Made by a program: the position numbers and the translations under genes. Below are positions 11,990-26,453 of a stretch of DNA of 64,000 nucleotides, piece by piece. This stretch comes from Escherichia coli (GTDB lineage: Bacteria; Pseudomonadota; Gammaproteobacteria; Enterobacterales; Enterobacteriaceae): the NCBI RefSeq assembly GCF_003991155.1, contig NZ_CP031293.1; one strand, given 5' to 3'. The first letter of the stretch is position 1; every line of letters starts with the position of its first letter. The notes below the pieces were generated by a model, which saw only the letters and a program-made list of their open reading frames with translations, did no database searches and was not told where the DNA came from.

Positions 11990-12874
11990 TCAGAACAGAC
12001 GATCCCACAGTGTTTCCAGCAGGCGGATAATGCGGTCCCGGGCTTTACGCAGAAGCTGTAACATCCAGACCGGAAAAGTGAACCGGGCAACGGCGTCGTC
12101 AAAACTTTTCCCGATGGCGTCACCAAAAGTCTGTTGTGCGTGTTTCTGGGCCTGTTCAGAGCGGTTTTCCCCCCGGATATGTGAATAAACCGCACTGGTT
12201 GCCTGCGGTGGCAGGGCGTGGATCATCAGCGACACAAACGCCGGAAGATTCCAGCCGACAGGCGCAGCAACGGGGAGTACCGGAAATGATGACGGGAACA
12301 GGGTTGCCACCCTGGCTGTAACAGTTGCCAGTGAGAGTTCCTGGTGACGGGATGGGCATTTTTCTGTGGCATTCCATTCTTCAGCAGGAAACACGCGATC
12401 GGCATGGCTGAGAACAAACAGAAAACGCGAGGGATCTGCACCTTCATTCAGTAAAAACTGATGCATGGCAATATCGGCAGCATACGCACGTTCATCAGCC
12501 CGCAGGATCCAGATAATCAGATCCAGTTCCGGCAGTAACTGACGGTAAAGCTCCCGGTATTCCTGATCATGCTGCGGTGTCTCACCAATGCCGGGCAGAT
12601 CGACCAGCGTCATTCTGCGTTCACCAATCTGCAGGGTGAGGCGATGAGCCTGGCGGGTGCAGCCGTTCAGGGGATGCGTGGCGCAGATACGGGACTGAAA
12701 AATGGCATTACACAGACTGCTTTTGCCGGAGCCGGATTTACCCATAATGCCAATCACGGGCTCGTAATGAATAACACCGTGGAGATGTTCAAGGATTTTC
12801 TGGCGAATTTCTTCAGGAAGAAACGTCAGATATGATTTCACTTGCGCGGAGAGGGAAGAATTGCTGAATGGCAT
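11990..12874 (-). CDS. YeeP/YfjP/YkfA-family GTPase
   Basis: P-loop GKSGSGKSSLCNAIF and G3 motif LVDLPGIGE. 294 aa. Confidence 0.85.
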   Translation of the reverse strand: MPFSNSSLSAQVKSYLTFLPEEIRQKILEHLHGVIHYEPVIGIMGKSGSGKSSLCNAIFQSRICATHPLNGCTRQAHRLTLQIGERRMTLVDLPGIGETPQHDQEYRELYRQLLPELDLIIWILRADERAYAADIAMHQFLLNEGADPSRFLFVLSHADRVFPAEEWNATEKCPSRHQELSLATVTARVATLFPSSFPVLPVAAPVGWNLPAFVSLMIHALPPQATSAVYSHIRGENRSEQAQKHAQQTFGDAIGKSFDDAVARFTFPVWMLQLLRKARDRIIRLLETLWDRLF

Positions 12875-12974
12875 ACCGGTATCCTGTTGATTTCACTGAA
12901 CCGGATCACACTAATCCGGTTTATCATTCAGGTAATATGGGTGTGAAAATTTTTCCATTGACGGGAAGAAGAGT

Positions 12975-14198
12975 ATGGCTAAAAACAAAGGTATCTGTCG
13001 GAATAAAAAATGCAGTAATCCTGTTTCAGAATTTGATGAGGCAAATGCCTTAAGGTTATGCGATGATCATTATAAGCTATGGAAGCGAAATAAAGAGAAT
13101 CGTCGGGTCAGGAATATTTGTCGTATAATTAGTAGATATGACAAAAGTCTGGACTGGGAGATATTTTATAGAGTAAGAGATGCTGCAAAAAATAAAACGG
13201 GAAAGAGAATTATTGAGGACGCAAAAATATTACATCAATGGCGTGCTTCAAAGCAAGTAAGAAAAAGTTTTCACAAGGGTGTGCTTCGGTCACGGGAATG
13301 GCTTAATACACAGGAGTTACTGAGCAGAAAACATATATCTGTTACAGGTGAACTATTTAAATTTTACATAAAAGATATTATCAGATTATATTGCTATAAG
13401 TTTCTCTACAGCAGAGAATATCTTAATGAAAACGCATACAAAAAACGATATCAGAGAGATATTCACCCCAGAAAAGTTAATGTTCCGATACTGCAACTTG
13501 AAGTTGCATGGATAAATAATAATTGCCGCTCAAGTGATTCAAGCACTGATATTATTATCCTTCCGAGGATGATAAGAAGAATGGTTGTATTTAATTATAC
13601 GAAGATAAATAAACAATTAGAGAAAGTGTTGGGGGGGATAGCACGAAAACAAACCTCAGAAAGGAATAAAGGCGGTCTCTATACCAGAATAAAAAAAGAA
13701 AGTGACTTTCTTTCTATGGATAGATTTATGGTGGAAATAGAAAATATCATAAGACCTGAAAGGTTTCCTACATCAATTTATCCAGTCTTTTCACATTCAT
13801 TTATTGAACGAGAGCTTCCGCTACTGAATCTTGCCCGATCACAGTATAAAAGAGCAATAAGTAAAAGAGTGGCGAATTCAATTTTTTATACTTTGCAAAA
13901 AACTAACGTGGCATTATGGCTATATCTTGAAATGTTTGCTCTGGTGGCATTCATTAAACTGTATACAGGAAAAGGTTTTGAATTCATAAAGAACATGTGT
14001 GTATTTATCGATTATGAGAAAGGGATAATAAAATCCACACATGAAGAACTGCTGGGTGAAATTAAGCGTAACATTCAAGTGAATTTGAAGGTGAATCCTG
14101 ATAATTTTCCAGAGTTAATAGACATATACAATTCATGCTTTAGTGAAAATATATTGTCATATGATATTCAGGATGGTAATTTTAAATGGCGCTCATGA
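12975..14198 (+). CDS. Hypothetical 407-aa Lys/Arg-rich protein with an N-terminal Cys/His cluster
   Basis: A long ORF in a visibly AT-rich segment, with a GGAAGAAGAG Shine-Dalgarno before the ATG. The N-terminus reads CRNKKC-x17-CDDH, which is zinc-ribbon-like. I recognise no family. Confidence 0.6.
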   Translation: MAKNKGICRNKKCSNPVSEFDEANALRLCDDHYKLWKRNKENRRVRNICRIISRYDKSLDWEIFYRVRDAAKNKTGKRIIEDAKILHQWRASKQVRKSFHKGVLRSREWLNTQELLSRKHISVTGELFKFYIKDIIRLYCYKFLYSREYLNENAYKKRYQRDIHPRKVNVPILQLEVAWINNNCRSSDSSTDIIILPRMIRRMVVFNYTKINKQLEKVLGGIARKQTSERNKGGLYTRIKKESDFLSMDRFMVEIENIIRPERFPTSIYPVFSHSFIERELPLLNLARSQYKRAISKRVANSIFYTLQKTNVALWLYLEMFALVAFIKLYTGKGFEFIKNMCVFIDYEKGIIKSTHEELLGEIKRNIQVNLKVNPDNFPELIDIYNSCFSENILSYDIQDGNFKWRS

Positions 14199-15434
14199 TG
14201 TAAAAATATTAATTTCACATTACATATTAATTATTCACAAAAAACATATAATTAATTTCAATGAGTTACATATAAAAATGTTGATGATTAGCCAGCTTAG
14301 TATGGTTATGCAATGTGATGCTTAACGCTTACAGATAATAACACATTCATATGAGCTATATATCATAATATTCAATAATCATGATATGCTAATCTGATTA
14401 TGGATAAAAATTACTGAATGACGCCATATTATGATTGGCAGTGTTTCCTGTATACGATGACTTATCTCTCCCGCATCATATGGGGGCACGTTTCTTAGGA
14501 AAAGTGACGGGGTTACAGAAGCCAATTACGATAGTTTGTTGTAGAGTTATCACGAGTTTTTGTTGTTCTGAAGACGGAATCAAAAAAATAATTCCAGAGT
14601 AAACCTGTCTGTTTTTTGACCAGTAAAGATCCATGCTGGCCGTGAAAAACTGAAATCAACACTCAGTCTGCATGGATGTCTGAAGATATTGAGAATGTCG
14701 GGAATGGTACTATATACGTATTATACAGACATATCTTCACTAAGTGTTATACACGCATTTTCATAAACAATTCTACAAGTGTTTTCATTAAGCATTGCTG
14801 TACACATTGTTTGATCTGATACACATCCAGTTTAGTAAATCTTTACGTTAGCTAAAATCAGTTTAAAGCTGCTACAAAACAATTTTTCTTGTTTAAGTAA
14901 TCAGGATGATATTCTATTTTTCTGAAGTTACGTTTAACCTTTTCTTAGTTTTTGTGTTTTTAGTCGTTAACCTGAGACAAGTGTCTTTATGTAAAAACGC
15001 AAATCCGGCTGAGATAACCTGGCGTGATTTACTGTGTGCTTACGATGATTTTGTTAAATGGTTTTATGGATGATTTTGTAACGATGAGATTGATGAGATG
15101 ATTAACTGGCCCTGGTGTTTTTTCTCAGCGCAAGACTCTTTTCAGGAAAAGCGTGATGATTGGTTCTGGTGTTTTGATTCAGATGAGGTTTACGTTATCG
15201 ATGGTTAACCGTTTTTATGGAGCGTAGTTAAAAGTAACGTTTTCAGTATAAGAAAATCGATTCTGATGTTGGTGGTTTTTGTTCTTGGGGCGGGGGTGTC
15301 TGTAAACAGGTTTTAATCGCGCTGTTCGGCTCTGTGATTGAGTTGTGTGGTTAAGCTGTAGGTGTGGTGTGATCTTACACAGCAATAGTGGACACGCGGC
15401 TAAGTGAGTAAACTCTCAGTCAGAGGTGACTCAC

Positions 15435-15734
15435 ATGACAAAAACAGTATCAACCAGTAAAAAACCCCGTAAACAGCATTCGCCTGAATTTCGCAGTGAA
15501 GCCCTGAAGCTTGCTGAACGCATCGGTGTTACTGCCGCAGCCCGTGAACTCAGCCTGTATGAATCACAGCTCTACAACTGGCGCAGTAAACAGCAAAATC
15601 AGCAGACGTCTTCTGAACGTGAACTGGAGATGTCTACCGAGATTGCACGTCTCAAACGCCAGCTGGCAGAACGGGATGAAGAGCTGGCTATCCTCCAAAA
15701 GGCCGCGACATACTTCGCGAAGCGCCTGAAATGA
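15435..15734 (+). CDS. insE: IS3 OrfA (transposase HTH component)
   Basis: Reads [52 protein letters not shown]... It overlaps orfB in the -1 frame, the usual frameshift arrangement. Confidence 0.9.
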
Positions 15735-16597
15735 AGTATGTCTTTATTGAAAAACATCAGGCTGAGTTCAGCATCAAAGCAATGTGCCGCGTGCTCCGGG
15801 TGGCCCGCAGCGGCTGGTATACGTGGTGTCAGCGGCGGACAAGGATAAGCACGCGTCAGCAGTTCCGCCAACACTGCGACAGCGTTGTCCTCGCGGCTTT
15901 TACCCGGTCAAAACAGCGTTACGGTGCCCCACGCCTGACGGATGAACTGCGTGCTCAGGGTTACCCCTTTAACGTAAAAACCGTGGCGGCAAGCCTGCGC
16001 CGTCAGGGACTGAGGGCAAAGGCCTCCCGGAAGTTCAGCCCGGTCAGCTACCGCGCACACGGCCTGCCTGTGTCAGAAAATCTGTTGGAGCAGGATTTTT
16101 ACGCCAGTGGCCCGAACCAGAAGTGGGCAGGAGACATCACGTACTTACGTACAGATGAAGGCTGGCTGTATCTGGCAGTGGTCATTGACCTGTGGTCACG
16201 TGCCGTTATTGGCTGGTCAATGTCGCCACGCATGACGGCGCAACTGGCCTGCGATGCCCTGCAGATGGCGCTGTGGCGGCGTAAGAGGCCCCGGAACGTT
16301 ATCGTTCACACGGACCGTGGAGGCCAGTACTGTTCAGCAGATTATCAGGCGCAACTGAAGCGGCATAATCTGCGTGGAAGTATGAGCGCAAAAGGTTGCT
16401 GCTACGATAATGCCTGCGTGGAAAGCTTCTTTCATTCGCTGAAAGTGGAATGTATCCATGGAGAACACTTTATCAGCCGGGAAATAATGCGGGTAACGGT
16501 GTTTAATTATATCGAATGTGATTACAATCGGTGGCGGCGGCACAGTTGGTGTGGCGGCCTCAGTCCGGAACAATTTGAAAACAAGAACCTCGCTTAG
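15731..16597 (+). CDS. insF: IS3 OrfB (DDE transposase)
   Basis: 288 aa with the integrase core [33 protein letters not shown]...HTDRGGQY. Confidence 0.9.
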
Positions 16598-16911
16598 GCC
16601 TGTGTCCATATTACGTGGGTAGGATCAGTGTTGCTGTTGATTTACAGCGCCAGAAAGCGTTCTGATTGCGTTTCTGACGTTTTGTTTGCGCGTTCTGTTG
16701 ATCCGTTTCCCTTCAGGCTTTGTAGTTTTTAAAAAACATTTATGCCGTTGTTGTGTGTTTTACTCTGCGTGTAGGTTTATTTTTTCTTCGTGGGGGATTC
16801 ATTCTGTTTTAATCAGGAGCCATTGGCGTTGCTCAATGGCGGGATGCCGTAAAGTTTTACCGCAGTGATTAATGATGTGAAGTCAATCCAAATCAACGGA
16901 GATCTCTCATC

Positions 16912-17643
16912 ATGAATCAACCAATACACAATGCTTACTGGTTATCCCGTTTTGAAAGTATTCTCAACAGTGCCCTGGCGCAACACCGTGCCGTCTCGTT
17001 AATCCGGGTGGATTTACGTTTCCCTGAGTATATGCCTGTCACCATCATGGATCCCGATCCGGATTCAGCGGTGATTTCCCGTTTTTTCGCATCCCTGAAA
17101 GCCAAAATTCAGGCTTACCAGCGGAAAAAAAGATGGGCCAATCAGCGTGTGCATGCAACCAGCCTGCGTTATTTCTGGTGCCGGGAGTTCGGCAAGATGT
17201 ATGGCAGGAAACATTATCACGTGATATTACTGCTCAACAAAGATACCTGGTGCTCGCTCGGGGATTTCAGCGAACCGTCTTCGCTGGCGACGATGATCCA
17301 GGAGGCATGGTGCAGCGCCCTGCATCTTGAGCCCTGGCAAGGCGATGGCCTGGTCCATTTTTCCAGGTGGACGCCTTCCCGTAAACCGACATCGTCTGAT
17401 GCTCGCCCTTCTTCCGATGACACGCCTTTGTCGGGTGGATGTTCTGATACCAGGAAGGCTTCAGACAAAAAGCCAGGTGAAGCCGCTGTGCTCTGGATCA
17501 AGCGTGGTGATGTGGAAGCGCTGCAGAAAGCCCGGAACAGAGCCAGTTATCTCGTGAAATATGAGACGAAGCAGCATGACGGTTCCGGGCAACGTAATTA
17601 TGGTTGCAGTCGTGGGCCGGGGCGTCTACTGGATGGCAGGTGA
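16912..17643 (+). CDS. YfjJ/YagK-family protein (inovirus Gp2-like), paralogue 1
   Basis: 243 aa reading ...LIRVDLRFPEY...YFWCREFG...HYHVILLLNKD... It has a GGAG Shine-Dalgarno 10 nt upstream. Confidence 0.7.
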   Translation: MNQPIHNAYWLSRFESILNSALAQHRAVSLIRVDLRFPEYMPVTIMDPDPDSAVISRFFASLKAKIQAYQRKKRWANQRVHATSLRYFWCREFGKMYGRKHYHVILLLNKDTWCSLGDFSEPSSLATMIQEAWCSALHLEPWQGDGLVHFSRWTPSRKPTSSDARPSSDDTPLSGGCSDTRKASDKKPGEAAVLWIKRGDVEALQKARNRASYLVKYETKQHDGSGQRNYGCSRGPGRLLDGR

Positions 17644-23928: not shown

Positions 23929-24762
23929 TTCATTCAATCATAACTACTGTAATTCATACGATACTCAGATAAGTTATTTTACTACGTTGTTGCTAATATC
24001 TACCTGTTATCAGTCTTCACTGAAACAGCAATTGATTTTAGTCATTATCCATAATGAACTGTATTGACTTAACGATGATTGTTGTTGACCTGAAGTGTTT
24101 TAACTATTCTGGTAAATATCAATACTTCTGTCATCACTGATTAACTGGATGTTTACTCTTTGATAAGGTATCCATGATTTCGTCATGTTTAACAGCGCAG
24201 GATAAACAATGAAATTAACAGAGTGAATTCCTGATTATATTTGTTCGTTTCTGATTATCTTGTATGTTAAACAAAATGAAAATTATCCATCCATGGTATA
24301 TTTTATTCTGGTACCGTGTACCCGTTAACGCTCATGTTTTGAAGTGAGTTGTTTTTAACAGATTAAATGAGAGTGTATGATTTTATCAGGTTACAGATAT
24401 GTGTTGGCCTTGTACACGTTTTTGCAGACTCACTGAGAGCAAGTTTGTAGTTTATGATGTGATTGGTCGCAATATGTTTCTTAATCTCCAGGTAGTGGGG
24501 TTTTAGCTCGTATTTTACAGTATTTCGTGATGTTTTATTGAGTCTGTATTTTCTTTACTCCTCGTTTATCTCATCTCTTTAGCTAATACCATCAGATAAT
24601 CCATTTCTTTCTGCATAATGCTGCGTATCGTTAATAACCCGTCGTATCCATTCTGCTACAGCATGCCTGATAAATACCATCTGTAAGTTATTACCGTTAT
24701 GAGCGAAAGCATTAATTCGTTCACAGAGCTTAAAACATCATTAACTTTCAGGAGTCATCAAC

Positions 24763-25329
24763 ATGCCTAAATCTTACACACCAAACTGGTTTTTTACCGC
24801 TTTACTTGACAATCACATCAATCAAATGCTGGCACGTTATTCCTGCCTGCGAGCTTTACGGATGGATTTCTTCTACAGGAAAGATACGCCTGATTTCTTA
24901 CAACCTGATCATCGCTGGCTTGAATTGCAGTTGCGTATGATGCTGGAACAGGTTGAACAATTTGAAAATATCGTTGGCTTCTTCTGGGTGATTGAATGGA
25001 CGGCTGATCATGGTTTTCATGCGCATGCGGTTTTCTGGATCGATCGTCAGAGGGTTAAAAAAATATATCCCTTTGCGGAGCGGATTACGGAATGCTGGCG
25101 GTCTATTACGCATAACAGCGGTTCGGTACATCGCTGTACATATCAGCCGCATTATACATACAACATCAACATTCCTGTGCGCCACAACGATCCTGAAAGC
25201 ATCAATAATATTCGCGGTGCCCTGCATTATCTGGCGAAAGAAGAGCAAAAAGACGGGTTGTGTGCCTACGGCTGCAATGAAGTTCCTGAACGTCCTGCTG
25301 CAGGGCGTCCTCGTAAGCCTCACTTCTGA
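24763..25329 (+). CDS. YfjJ/YagK-family protein, paralogue 2
   Basis: 188 aa reading ...LRMDFFYRKD...FFWVIEWTADHGFHAHAVFWIDRQ..., with a GGAG Shine-Dalgarno. Confidence 0.7.
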   Translation: MPKSYTPNWFFTALLDNHINQMLARYSCLRALRMDFFYRKDTPDFLQPDHRWLELQLRMMLEQVEQFENIVGFFWVIEWTADHGFHAHAVFWIDRQRVKKIYPFAERITECWRSITHNSGSVHRCTYQPHYTYNINIPVRHNDPESINNIRGALHYLAKEEQKDGLCAYGCNEVPERPAAGRPRKPHF

Positions 25330-26151: not shown

Positions 26152-26219
26152 AAACACGGCTCAGCATCTTCTTCCGCATTTGCACAACCTTCATAAATCT
26201 CACAAAGGACATTCTGACC

Positions 26220-26453
26220 ATGTTGACCACAACAAACCACGACAGCGTGTTGCTGCGTGCCGACGATCCCCTGATCGACATGAACTACATCACCAGTTTC
26301 ACTGGCATGACAGATAAATGGTTTTACAAGCTGATCAGTGAAGGCCATTTCCCTAAACCCATCAAACTGGGGCGCAGCAGCCGCTGGTACAAAAGTGAGG
26401 TGGAGCAGTGGATGCAGCAACGAATCGAGGAATCCCGGGGGGCAGCAGCATGA
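26220..26453 (+). CDS. AlpA-family (prophage CP4-57 regulatory/excisionase-like) DNA-binding protein
   Basis: 77 aa reading ...LIDMNYITSFTGMTDKWFYKLISEGHFPKPIKLGRSSRWYKSEVEQWM, the AlpA MerR-like HTH signature. Confidence 0.85.
   Translation: MLTTTNHDSVLLRADDPLIDMNYITSFTGMTDKWFYKLISEGHFPKPIKLGRSSRWYKSEVEQWMQQRIEESRGAAA

Follow-up and report, generated by a model that had tools for sequence, protein, structure and literature searches.

The window analyzed here, a stretch of 64,000 nucleotides of Escherichia coli contig NZ_CP031293.1 (assembly GCF_003991155.1), contains on its plus strand a gene with an ATG start (positions 12975–14198) for a protein of 407 amino acids (aa), WP_001107219.1, which belongs to a superfamily without a name. 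An earlier note on this DNA, made from the letters alone, had described this open reading frame (ORF) as that of a Lys/Arg-rich orphan protein in an AT-rich segment of a CP4-like mobile island. The frame is present as described, the protein is basic (isoelectric point 9.82; K+R minus D+E of +32), and the GC content falls to 0.27–0.38 over approximately 12800–15200, as against 0.48–0.59 on either side. To the left, on the minus strand and divergent from the gene, lies a YfjP-family GTPase gene (11990–12874; an ORF also given in the RefSeq annotation of an identical strain), the first of a leftward string of backbone genes (GTPase, WYL/YfjR, hypothetical, DUF905, DUF932, antirestriction, RadC, DUF987, and CbeA/CbtA). 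To the right, beyond a non-coding tract that contains a copy of IS3, lies a gene of the YfjJ/YagK family (16912–17643, plus strand; 'inovirus Gp2 family', REP_ORF2-G2P), which is the conserved right-hand neighbor of the tract. The YfjP GTPase, DUF932, RadC, CbtA, and YfjJ genes are CP4-type backbone genes and bear out the attribution to such an island.

No curated family, paper or defense catalogue covers the 407-aa protein. RefSeq lists it as 'hypothetical protein', and all sources name its homologues 'hypothetical', with the exception of one UniProt label, the automatic name 'Reverse transcriptase' given to A0AAX3CP38. We rejected this name, as that entry has no recorded Pfam domain and no RVT match was obtained in the family members scanned. 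Searches with the 407-aa protein yielded no Pfam or NCBIfam family at E values up to 10 and no match in PADLOC, PHROGs, PDB or BFVD, and a literature search on the gene family found nothing. The earlier statement that the protein could be placed in no family was therefore upheld, and the profile searches assigned it to neither a housekeeping nor a phage structural family. The structure prediction that had been proposed for it did produce AlphaFold models, but those of the window protein and of a protein from a remote clade of the superfamily were both poor, and structural searches, including Foldseek, gave no meaningful match. A helical C-terminal half of approximately 200 aa, without known relatives, is predicted by the model.

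Distribution, position and allele types of the family

The gene is not an orphan: its DNA was detected in 975 of 5426 complete E. coli genomes, with at most four copies per genome, and distant homologues exist, with relatives of approximately 35% identity in Citrobacter, Klebsiella, Salmonella, and Atlantibacter. A word-indexed search of 5.8 billion proteins returned just 16 clusters, consisting of the E. coli copies and relatives with 33–37% identity (Citrobacter, Klebsiella michiganensis, and further assemblies), and when the superfamily alignment was the query of a word-indexed search, only the window clade was retrieved. An exhaustive HMMER scan of 1.84 billion representative proteins with the clade profile gave 43 matches, and only three loci were found among the representatives of 185,579 species with a narrow alignment. 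No family members were found in the phage and plasmid collections. This is a small family, essentially confined to enterobacterial chromosomal islands. One locus (L019, CACSKA010000007.1) comes from an assembly titled Chryseobacterium sp. 18061; its arrangement is near-identical to that of locus L018 (Enterobacteriaceae bacterium), with equal tblastn identity to the query, which suggests contamination or mislabelling of that assembly.

In every locus examined, a family member stood at the junction between the string running from the YfjP-type GTPase gene to CbtA and the AlpA/YfjJ module, and seven diverse E. coli loci all used this junction. Eight non-E. coli loci were searched by tblastn with the backbone proteins: AlpA adjoined the family member in all eight and the GTPase gene in five, a WYL gene being nearby in the three loci without an adjoining GTPase gene, and YfjJ followed AlpA in six. 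The homologues from Citrobacter (L003), K. michiganensis (L004), and a metagenome (L006) are divergent from a YfjP-type GTPase gene, at a distance of 95–100 bp, and are followed by alpA and then by yfjJ/yagK. In Klebsiella pneumoniae (L009 and L010), a member of the remote clade is flanked by an AlpA-domain gene on one side and, on the other, by the GTPase-WYL-DUF932-RadC-CbeA-CbtA string, with which it is co-directional, and it precedes the GTPase gene; in Providencia (L011 and L012), the remote-clade member overlaps the end of alpA. Cargo was located downstream of yfjJ: a type I restriction-modification system (L004), a TIR gene (L006), a restriction endonuclease (L016), ireA (L008) and, in the window, a pseudouridine/nucleoside (psu) operon.

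At the spot divergent from the GTPase gene, E. coli islands carry the 407-aa gene, a 376-aa gene (L015 and L016) or a 316-aa gene (L008). The 376-aa protein matched the superfamily profile with E = 1e-57 and the profile built from the window clade alone with E = 5e-15; the corresponding values for the 316-aa protein, from which the N-terminal Cys cluster is absent, were 5.5e-13 and 3.3e-5. These profile matches mark both proteins as evidently diverged members of the superfamily of the 407-aa protein. The three allele types occur in 975 (407-aa), 463 (376-aa), and 499–743 (316-aa) genomes, a sum close to the 1866 genomes that carry the tract. In the 316-aa arrangement, as seen in E. coli FY26 (L008:3742–5477; 499–743 genomes), the gene is tail-to-tail with a gene for an unrelated 262-aa hypothetical protein, which gave no match to the 407-aa family.

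The proposal that the gene is cargo in a variable slot is thus contradicted by the adjoining AlpA in all eight non-E. coli loci and by alternative occupants from the same superfamily. With good confidence, we regard it as a backbone gene of CP4-57/CP4-6-type enterobacterial integrative islands, fixed in position although its sequence diverges fast, rather than as cargo.

Comparison of loci of different allele types showed 94–95% identity in the GTPase gene, 96% in the first ~75 bp of the intergenic region, 82–88% in the distal ~1050 bp of the tract, and 92–97% in yfjJ. The gene and the next ~400 bp showed no DNA similarity between allele types. In E. coli, diverged alleles thus appear to be exchanged between islands as a unit with the downstream spacer of ~400 bp, and, judged from these identities, one promoter-proximal region serves all the E. 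coli allele types.

The order of the island in the window is altered relative to the non-E. coli relatives, with a second YfjJ-like gene at ~24760–25323 and alpA at ~26217–26441. The block between the first YfjJ-like gene and these two contains genes for a pseudouridine kinase/glycosidase, a nucleoside transporter, and a sugar kinase. A 318-aa gene divergent from alpA was observed both in Providencia (L011:8569–9525) and in K-12, as yfjH (L017:4645–5601).

A probable relic of an HNH core and a predicted metal-binding module

The superfamily alignment comprised three clades. In the remote clade (proteins from K. pneumoniae, Enterobacter, Providencia, and other sources), a second CxxC...C...H cluster accompanies the motif LE(V/L)CH.YPNS.GG.N...N.IIAP..INR..D.IP, in which His, Asn, and Asn are invariant. 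The window clade has LEVAW/F, and the His is missing from the third clade as well. By hhalign, the window and remote clades align over 367 columns (probability 99.8%, E = 2.6e-30). The position of the general-base His is occupied by W179 in the window protein, and by W, F or K within the window clade, and D192 and R201 align with the invariant N171 and N180 of the remote clade (numbering of protein P0035). On the strength of this full-length match, the window protein is homologous to probable HNH nucleases, but all three residues of the catalytic triad have been replaced in it. The segment in question, LQLEVAWINNNCRSSDSSTDIIILPRMIRRMV, corresponds to residues ~171–206 (13485–13592, plus strand) and contains W179, D192, and R201. 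The earlier note had seen no obvious nuclease motif; this holds for the catalytic His, Asn, and Asn, which are absent, but not for the core itself, of which a relic is present.

The comparison with Pfam was limited to the 74-aa motif segments, taken from 19 members of the remote clade. HNH_4 was matched by 11 of the 19 segments (best E = 4.5e-4), HNH_5 by five (best E = 2.7e-3), and HNH by one; four Pfam families were matched in all, three of them HNH and one non-HNH. A profile of the same segments gave 12 weak matches among PDB sequences, 10 of which were HNH nucleases, among them 4h9d, McrA 6ghc, Cas8f-HNH, and Cas9 8d2k; these matched at the catalytic H..P.s.GG..t.N core. The HNH matches of the remote clade, although singly below threshold, are specific when taken together. 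The window protein itself gave no match to a Pfam HNH model at any threshold. This outcome with the curated profiles supports descent from the HNH superfamily, and not membership as an active enzyme. In the AlphaFold2 model of the window protein, the region forms a strand (175–179), a second strand (193–197), and a helix (198–219), with a predicted local distance difference test (pLDDT) score of ~60. A search of PDB by Foldseek with the remote-clade model gave no match. We conclude with good confidence, on the basis of these sequence comparisons, that the 407-aa protein probably descends from a family of HNH-type nucleases and has lost the catalytic residues.

The Cys/His cluster that had been noted at the N-terminus is confirmed by the conservation of four putative ligands, C8, C13, C29, and H32 (spacing C8-x4-C13-x15-C29-x2-H32; module at 12990–13079, plus strand), which were invariant in alignments of 24–27 diverse superfamily members. 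In the AlphaFold2 model, this module is a short hairpin followed by a helix, with pLDDT values of 80–88. The conserved C2CH ligands are compatible with its description as zinc-ribbon-like, but no named zinc-finger family recurs: the Pfam matches fell into 13 different families with one member each, and the best PDB match, to the zinc finger of TtuA, was weak (E = 0.43). The module probably binds zinc. No tool confirmed a likeness to the 'GLC..HY.R' modules found in actinobacterial HNH proteins, and this comparison was set aside. Two Salmonella enterica proteins of 465–468 aa (P0018 and P0056) have two tandem N-terminal C2CH modules, the first resembling that of the 376-aa clade and the second that of the window clade, suggesting that the zinc finger is modular and can be duplicated or recombined.

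The ratio of nonsynonymous to synonymous substitution rates (dN/dS) between E. coli alleles was 0.27 for the 407-aa gene, 0.11–0.22 for the GTPase gene, and 0.26–0.36 for yfjJ. This purifying selection implies that the gene is functional. Within the gene, the zinc-finger region (residues 1–60) had a dN/dS of 0.05 and was the most constrained part, the HNH relic had a value of 0.09, indicating that the dead segment still matters, and residues 61–170 were the least constrained (0.51).

Non-coding DNA on either side of the gene

The first ~75 bp of the 100-bp divergent intergenic region (12875–12974) are common to all E. coli allele types (seven loci). This region contains an inverted repeat, AACCGGAT (12899–12906) and ATCCGGTT (12914–12921), with seven nucleotides between the arms, and a −10-like element, GGTAATATGG (12931–12940), in which TAATAT (12933–12938) lies 37 nt before the ATG; the sequence GGTAATATRG is conserved in L003, L004, L006, and L020. 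The hairpins of the Citrobacter locus (L003:9907–10000) and the metagenome locus (L006:9903–10000) have other arms (ATCCTGGC/GCCAGGAT and ATCCG../..CGGAT), with a TTGACA-like loop, so that the arms still pair in the window, L003, and L006 in spite of their different sequences. L004 has no such hairpin. The structure could be an operator, or a hairpin formed in RNA or single-stranded DNA.

Downstream of the gene, no ORF of 60 aa or more is present between 14326 and IS3, as previously reported; the largest have 47–56 aa. The length of this ORF-free interval, given as 1.1 kb, has to be corrected. The IS3 copy (1258 bp; 15370–16627, plus strand) is flanked by a GTG target duplication (15367–15369 and 16628–16630) and lies 284 bp upstream of the start codon of the yfjJ-like gene. 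It is strain-specific and absent from many otherwise identical strains (H22–H25 and L001, for example), and its excision in silico yielded the IS3-free allele of other strains at 1452 of 1452 bases. The true tract therefore begins at 14199, reaches to the start codon of the yfjJ-like gene (16912), and measures 1452 bp without IS3. In the source strain, IS3 separates the yfjJ-like gene from most of its conserved upstream region.

The tract is composed of several parts. The AT-rich spacer adjoining the gene (14199–14600; GC ~0.27–0.31) is hypervariable, goes with the 407-aa allele, and is absent from loci with other allele types; it showed ~75% identity between loci whose genes are 96.7% identical. 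A terminator-like hairpin at 14468–14486, the only one in the spacer, was not conserved between loci, and no promoter or terminator sites were found above chance in the segment. The proximal part of the region upstream of yfjJ (14601–15369, plus strand) is common to all allele types, and the distal part directly upstream of the yfjJ-like gene (16631–16911, plus strand) is rich in G+T (67–70%). Over the ~750 bp upstream of yfjJ (~14900–15369 and 16631–16911), the G+T content of the yfjJ sense strand is 61–70%. Degenerate direct repeats, TTTTACTAAGYRTT and TACACRTGTTTTCATTAAG, form a cluster in the window (~14658–14810) and in two other islands (L013:4504–4661 and L008:6144–6282); their copy number varies between islands, with a period of 12–13 and 3.7 copies in L013 according to TRF (Tandem Repeats Finder). 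The iteron-like motif TTTTACTAAGYRTT was not above chance in the window.

Approximately 1–1.5 kb of this DNA is retained in 1866 genomes and travels with yfjJ. It is non-coding: there was no 3-base periodicity, only ~12% of the indels were multiples of three, and no ORF was common to the copies. Rfam yielded no match at E values up to 1 with the tract, whether taken from the window or from the IS3-free copy, and no long inverted repeats and no alpA remnant (tblastn with three AlpA proteins) were found in it. The alifold z-scores were unremarkable, with the exception of one block (z = −9), on which we do not rely because it overlaps a gappy repeat region. The tract diverges at approximately the synonymous rate of the flanking genes, and constraint at the nucleotide level therefore cannot be demonstrated. 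In E. coli JML285 (L014:5160–5690), an extra gene for a 176-aa hypothetical protein is present on the opposite strand inside the tract, which there has a length of 2363 bp.

Possible functions and comparison with known systems

The reading that we prefer, and to which we would give an even chance, is that the 407-aa protein is a non-catalytic DNA-binding factor of an AlpA-linked island module, engaged in control or propagation. The protein would no longer cut DNA; its zinc finger and dead HNH fold would form a nucleic-acid-binding module, and it would act with AlpA in the circuit that controls or propagates the island, at the level of transcription, excision or replication. The catalytic residues are gone from two of the three clades while the segment remains constrained, pointing to a shared function other than DNA cleavage; a role in binding is favored by the zinc finger, by the surplus of basic residues, and by the association with AlpA, the gene of which is overlapped by the family member in Providencia. 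Thus, DNA binding, the absence of catalysis, and a part in regulation or propagation are what we infer from the comparisons described above.

Several observations weigh against this reading. All HNH matches of the remote clade fell below the curated thresholds of Pfam, and the predicted fold is of little help, since the pLDDT of the remote-clade model was 57 overall and fell to ~30 in the HNH motif. AlpA does not adjoin the gene in the E. coli islands, where the distance is at least 3 kb (alpA orthologue at ~26217–26441 in the window). The inverted repeat is identical across the E. coli allele types, which makes an allele-specific operator role for the protein unlikely. Furthermore, the cassette-like replacement of the gene between conserved flanks would also be expected of a determinant of specificity or of an arms race. 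We also considered a specificity determinant of P4-like islands not recognized before, either a single-protein immunity or interference factor or an island-specific origin- or site-recognition protein. Its alleles, one clade with an active HNH core and two with dead ones, would diversify and be swapped as cassettes behind a shared promoter, and the AT-rich DNA would be its cognate target; we hold this to be doubtful.

The earlier note had guessed at a defense, abortive-infection or addiction function, for which we found no positive evidence. Such a protein might be a single-gene defense factor against phages or mobile elements, an anti-defense factor or a factor interfering with a helper, under diversifying selection, the remote clade being an HNH nuclease and the His-less clades binding only. 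The gene and spacer are indeed swapped as a unit between flanks with 92–97% conservation, three deeply diverged allele types coexist in E. coli, and one clade has an intact HNH-like core; the narrow taxonomic spread, a neighborhood rich in antirestriction, RadC, toxin-antitoxin, and defense cargo genes, and the presence of AbpAB and RnlAB in a comparable island, CP4-57 of K-12, also agree with this explanation. However, no PADLOC-DB v2 model matched the window protein, and 10 remote relatives gave no meaningful match. The homologues have one fixed backbone position, apart from the cargo downstream of yfjJ. Selection within the allele type is purifying, at a level like that of the neighboring genes, the catalytic residues have been lost in the two commonest E. 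coli clades, and the phage and plasmid collections contain no homologues. We therefore consider a defense function unlikely.

It is rather improbable, in our judgment, that the gene and its spacer form an initiator-origin module, or a protein with its cognate site, in which the protein would bind sites in the adjoining DNA and start replication after excision. The alleles would then keep co-resident islands from cross-talk, by analogy with rep-ori of Staphylococcus aureus pathogenicity islands (SaPIs) and other phage-inducible chromosomal islands (PICIs) and with the O-ori of phage lambda; in SaPIs, the origin directly follows the 3′ end of rep. Neither a helicase or ATPase domain nor a known initiator domain was found in the protein by the Pfam and NCBIfam scans, and the 400-bp spacer itself lacks iterons, even if the gene and ~400 bp of DNA with low GC content (~0.27–0.31) do travel together and a direct-repeat cluster of variable copy number lies nearby. 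That cluster is located in the part common to all allele types, and its motif is not above chance in the window. The gene shares operon or direction with AlpA and the Rep/G2P-like YfjJ, with YfjI (P4 alpha-like) following in some islands, and up to four gene copies occur in one genome; however, the spacer is 75% identical where the proteins are ~97% identical, which counts against tight co-evolution of protein and site. The possibility that an ex-nuclease gene is simply drifting, as a functionless remnant, in an AT-rich segment silenced by H-NS, with the tract as junk DNA, appears very improbable. The loss of the catalytic residues, the foreign-looking AT-rich composition, the near-synonymous divergence of the tract, and the promoter and terminator sites at chance level are what such a remnant would leave, but hundreds of genomes, as well as relatives with 35% identity, have kept the frame of 407 codons intact, 50 residues are invariant across the window clade, the dN/dS values for the whole gene and for its two motif regions are low, and the −10-like element upstream is conserved in distant loci.

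Approximately one third of complete E. coli genomes have a family member at this junction, and the databases all label it 'hypothetical'. Recognition of its backbone status, of three alleles within one superfamily, and of an HNH-like ancestor would improve the annotation of thousands of genomes and corrects the tempting, and unsupported, designation as a defense gene. The excision of CP4-type islands and their cargo of toxin-antitoxin, defense, and virulence genes matter for E. coli biology, and the question raised here is what role a dead-nuclease zinc-finger protein may have in their AlpA-controlled module.

The 407-aa protein is best described as an HNH-derived pseudo-nuclease in an island of known type, and as such is mechanistically unsurprising. 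Its likeness to the HNH endonucleases HNH_4 (PF13395, Cas9-type) and HNH_5 (PF14279) runs through the remote clade, the motif of which aligns with the cores of HNH_4, HNH_5, 4h9d, McrA, Cas8f-HNH, and Cas9; the window protein is related to that clade over its full length and has a predicted beta-beta-alpha arrangement, modelled with low confidence. It differs from these enzymes in having W179, D192, and R201 instead of His, Asn, and Asn, and, far larger than an HNH domain alone, it carries an additional N-terminal zinc finger and helical C-terminal half. With catalytically dead DNA-binding proteins of nuclease fold it would share the retention of a constrained segment (dN/dS 0.09) after the loss of catalytic residues, whereas no specific described pseudo-HNH family matches it, and its DNA binding is presumed.

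The backbones of CP4-57, CP4-6, and CP4-44 of K-12, compared through alpA, yfjI, yfjJ/yagK, yfjP/ykfA/yeeP, yfjQ, yfjR, yfjX, yfjY, and yfjZ-ypjF, provide the same neighbors as in the window (YfjP GTPase, WYL/YfjR, DUF932, antirestriction, RadC, CbeA/CbtA, YfjJ, and AlpA). A six-frame translation of CP4-57 contained no member of the 407-aa family. In that island, the alpA-yfjI-yfjJ module and the yfjP string have the same direction, with defense cargo between them, whereas in the window island the two modules are divergent and the 407-aa gene occupies the junction. The earlier mention of defense cargo beside the GTPase gene of CP4-57 was correct: AbpAB (Hachiman) and RnlAB are located downstream of yfjJ and before yfjP (PMC10732053, PMC11914072). 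The family resembles such cargo, and the defense hotspots of satellites and prophages, in belonging to a P4-like island in which alleles are exchanged between conserved flanks. However, it has no relation to PADLOC systems and its alternative alleles are homologous rather than unrelated systems; the cargo of CP4-57 lies downstream of yfjJ, whereas the 407-aa family keeps its place beside AlpA and the GTPase gene.

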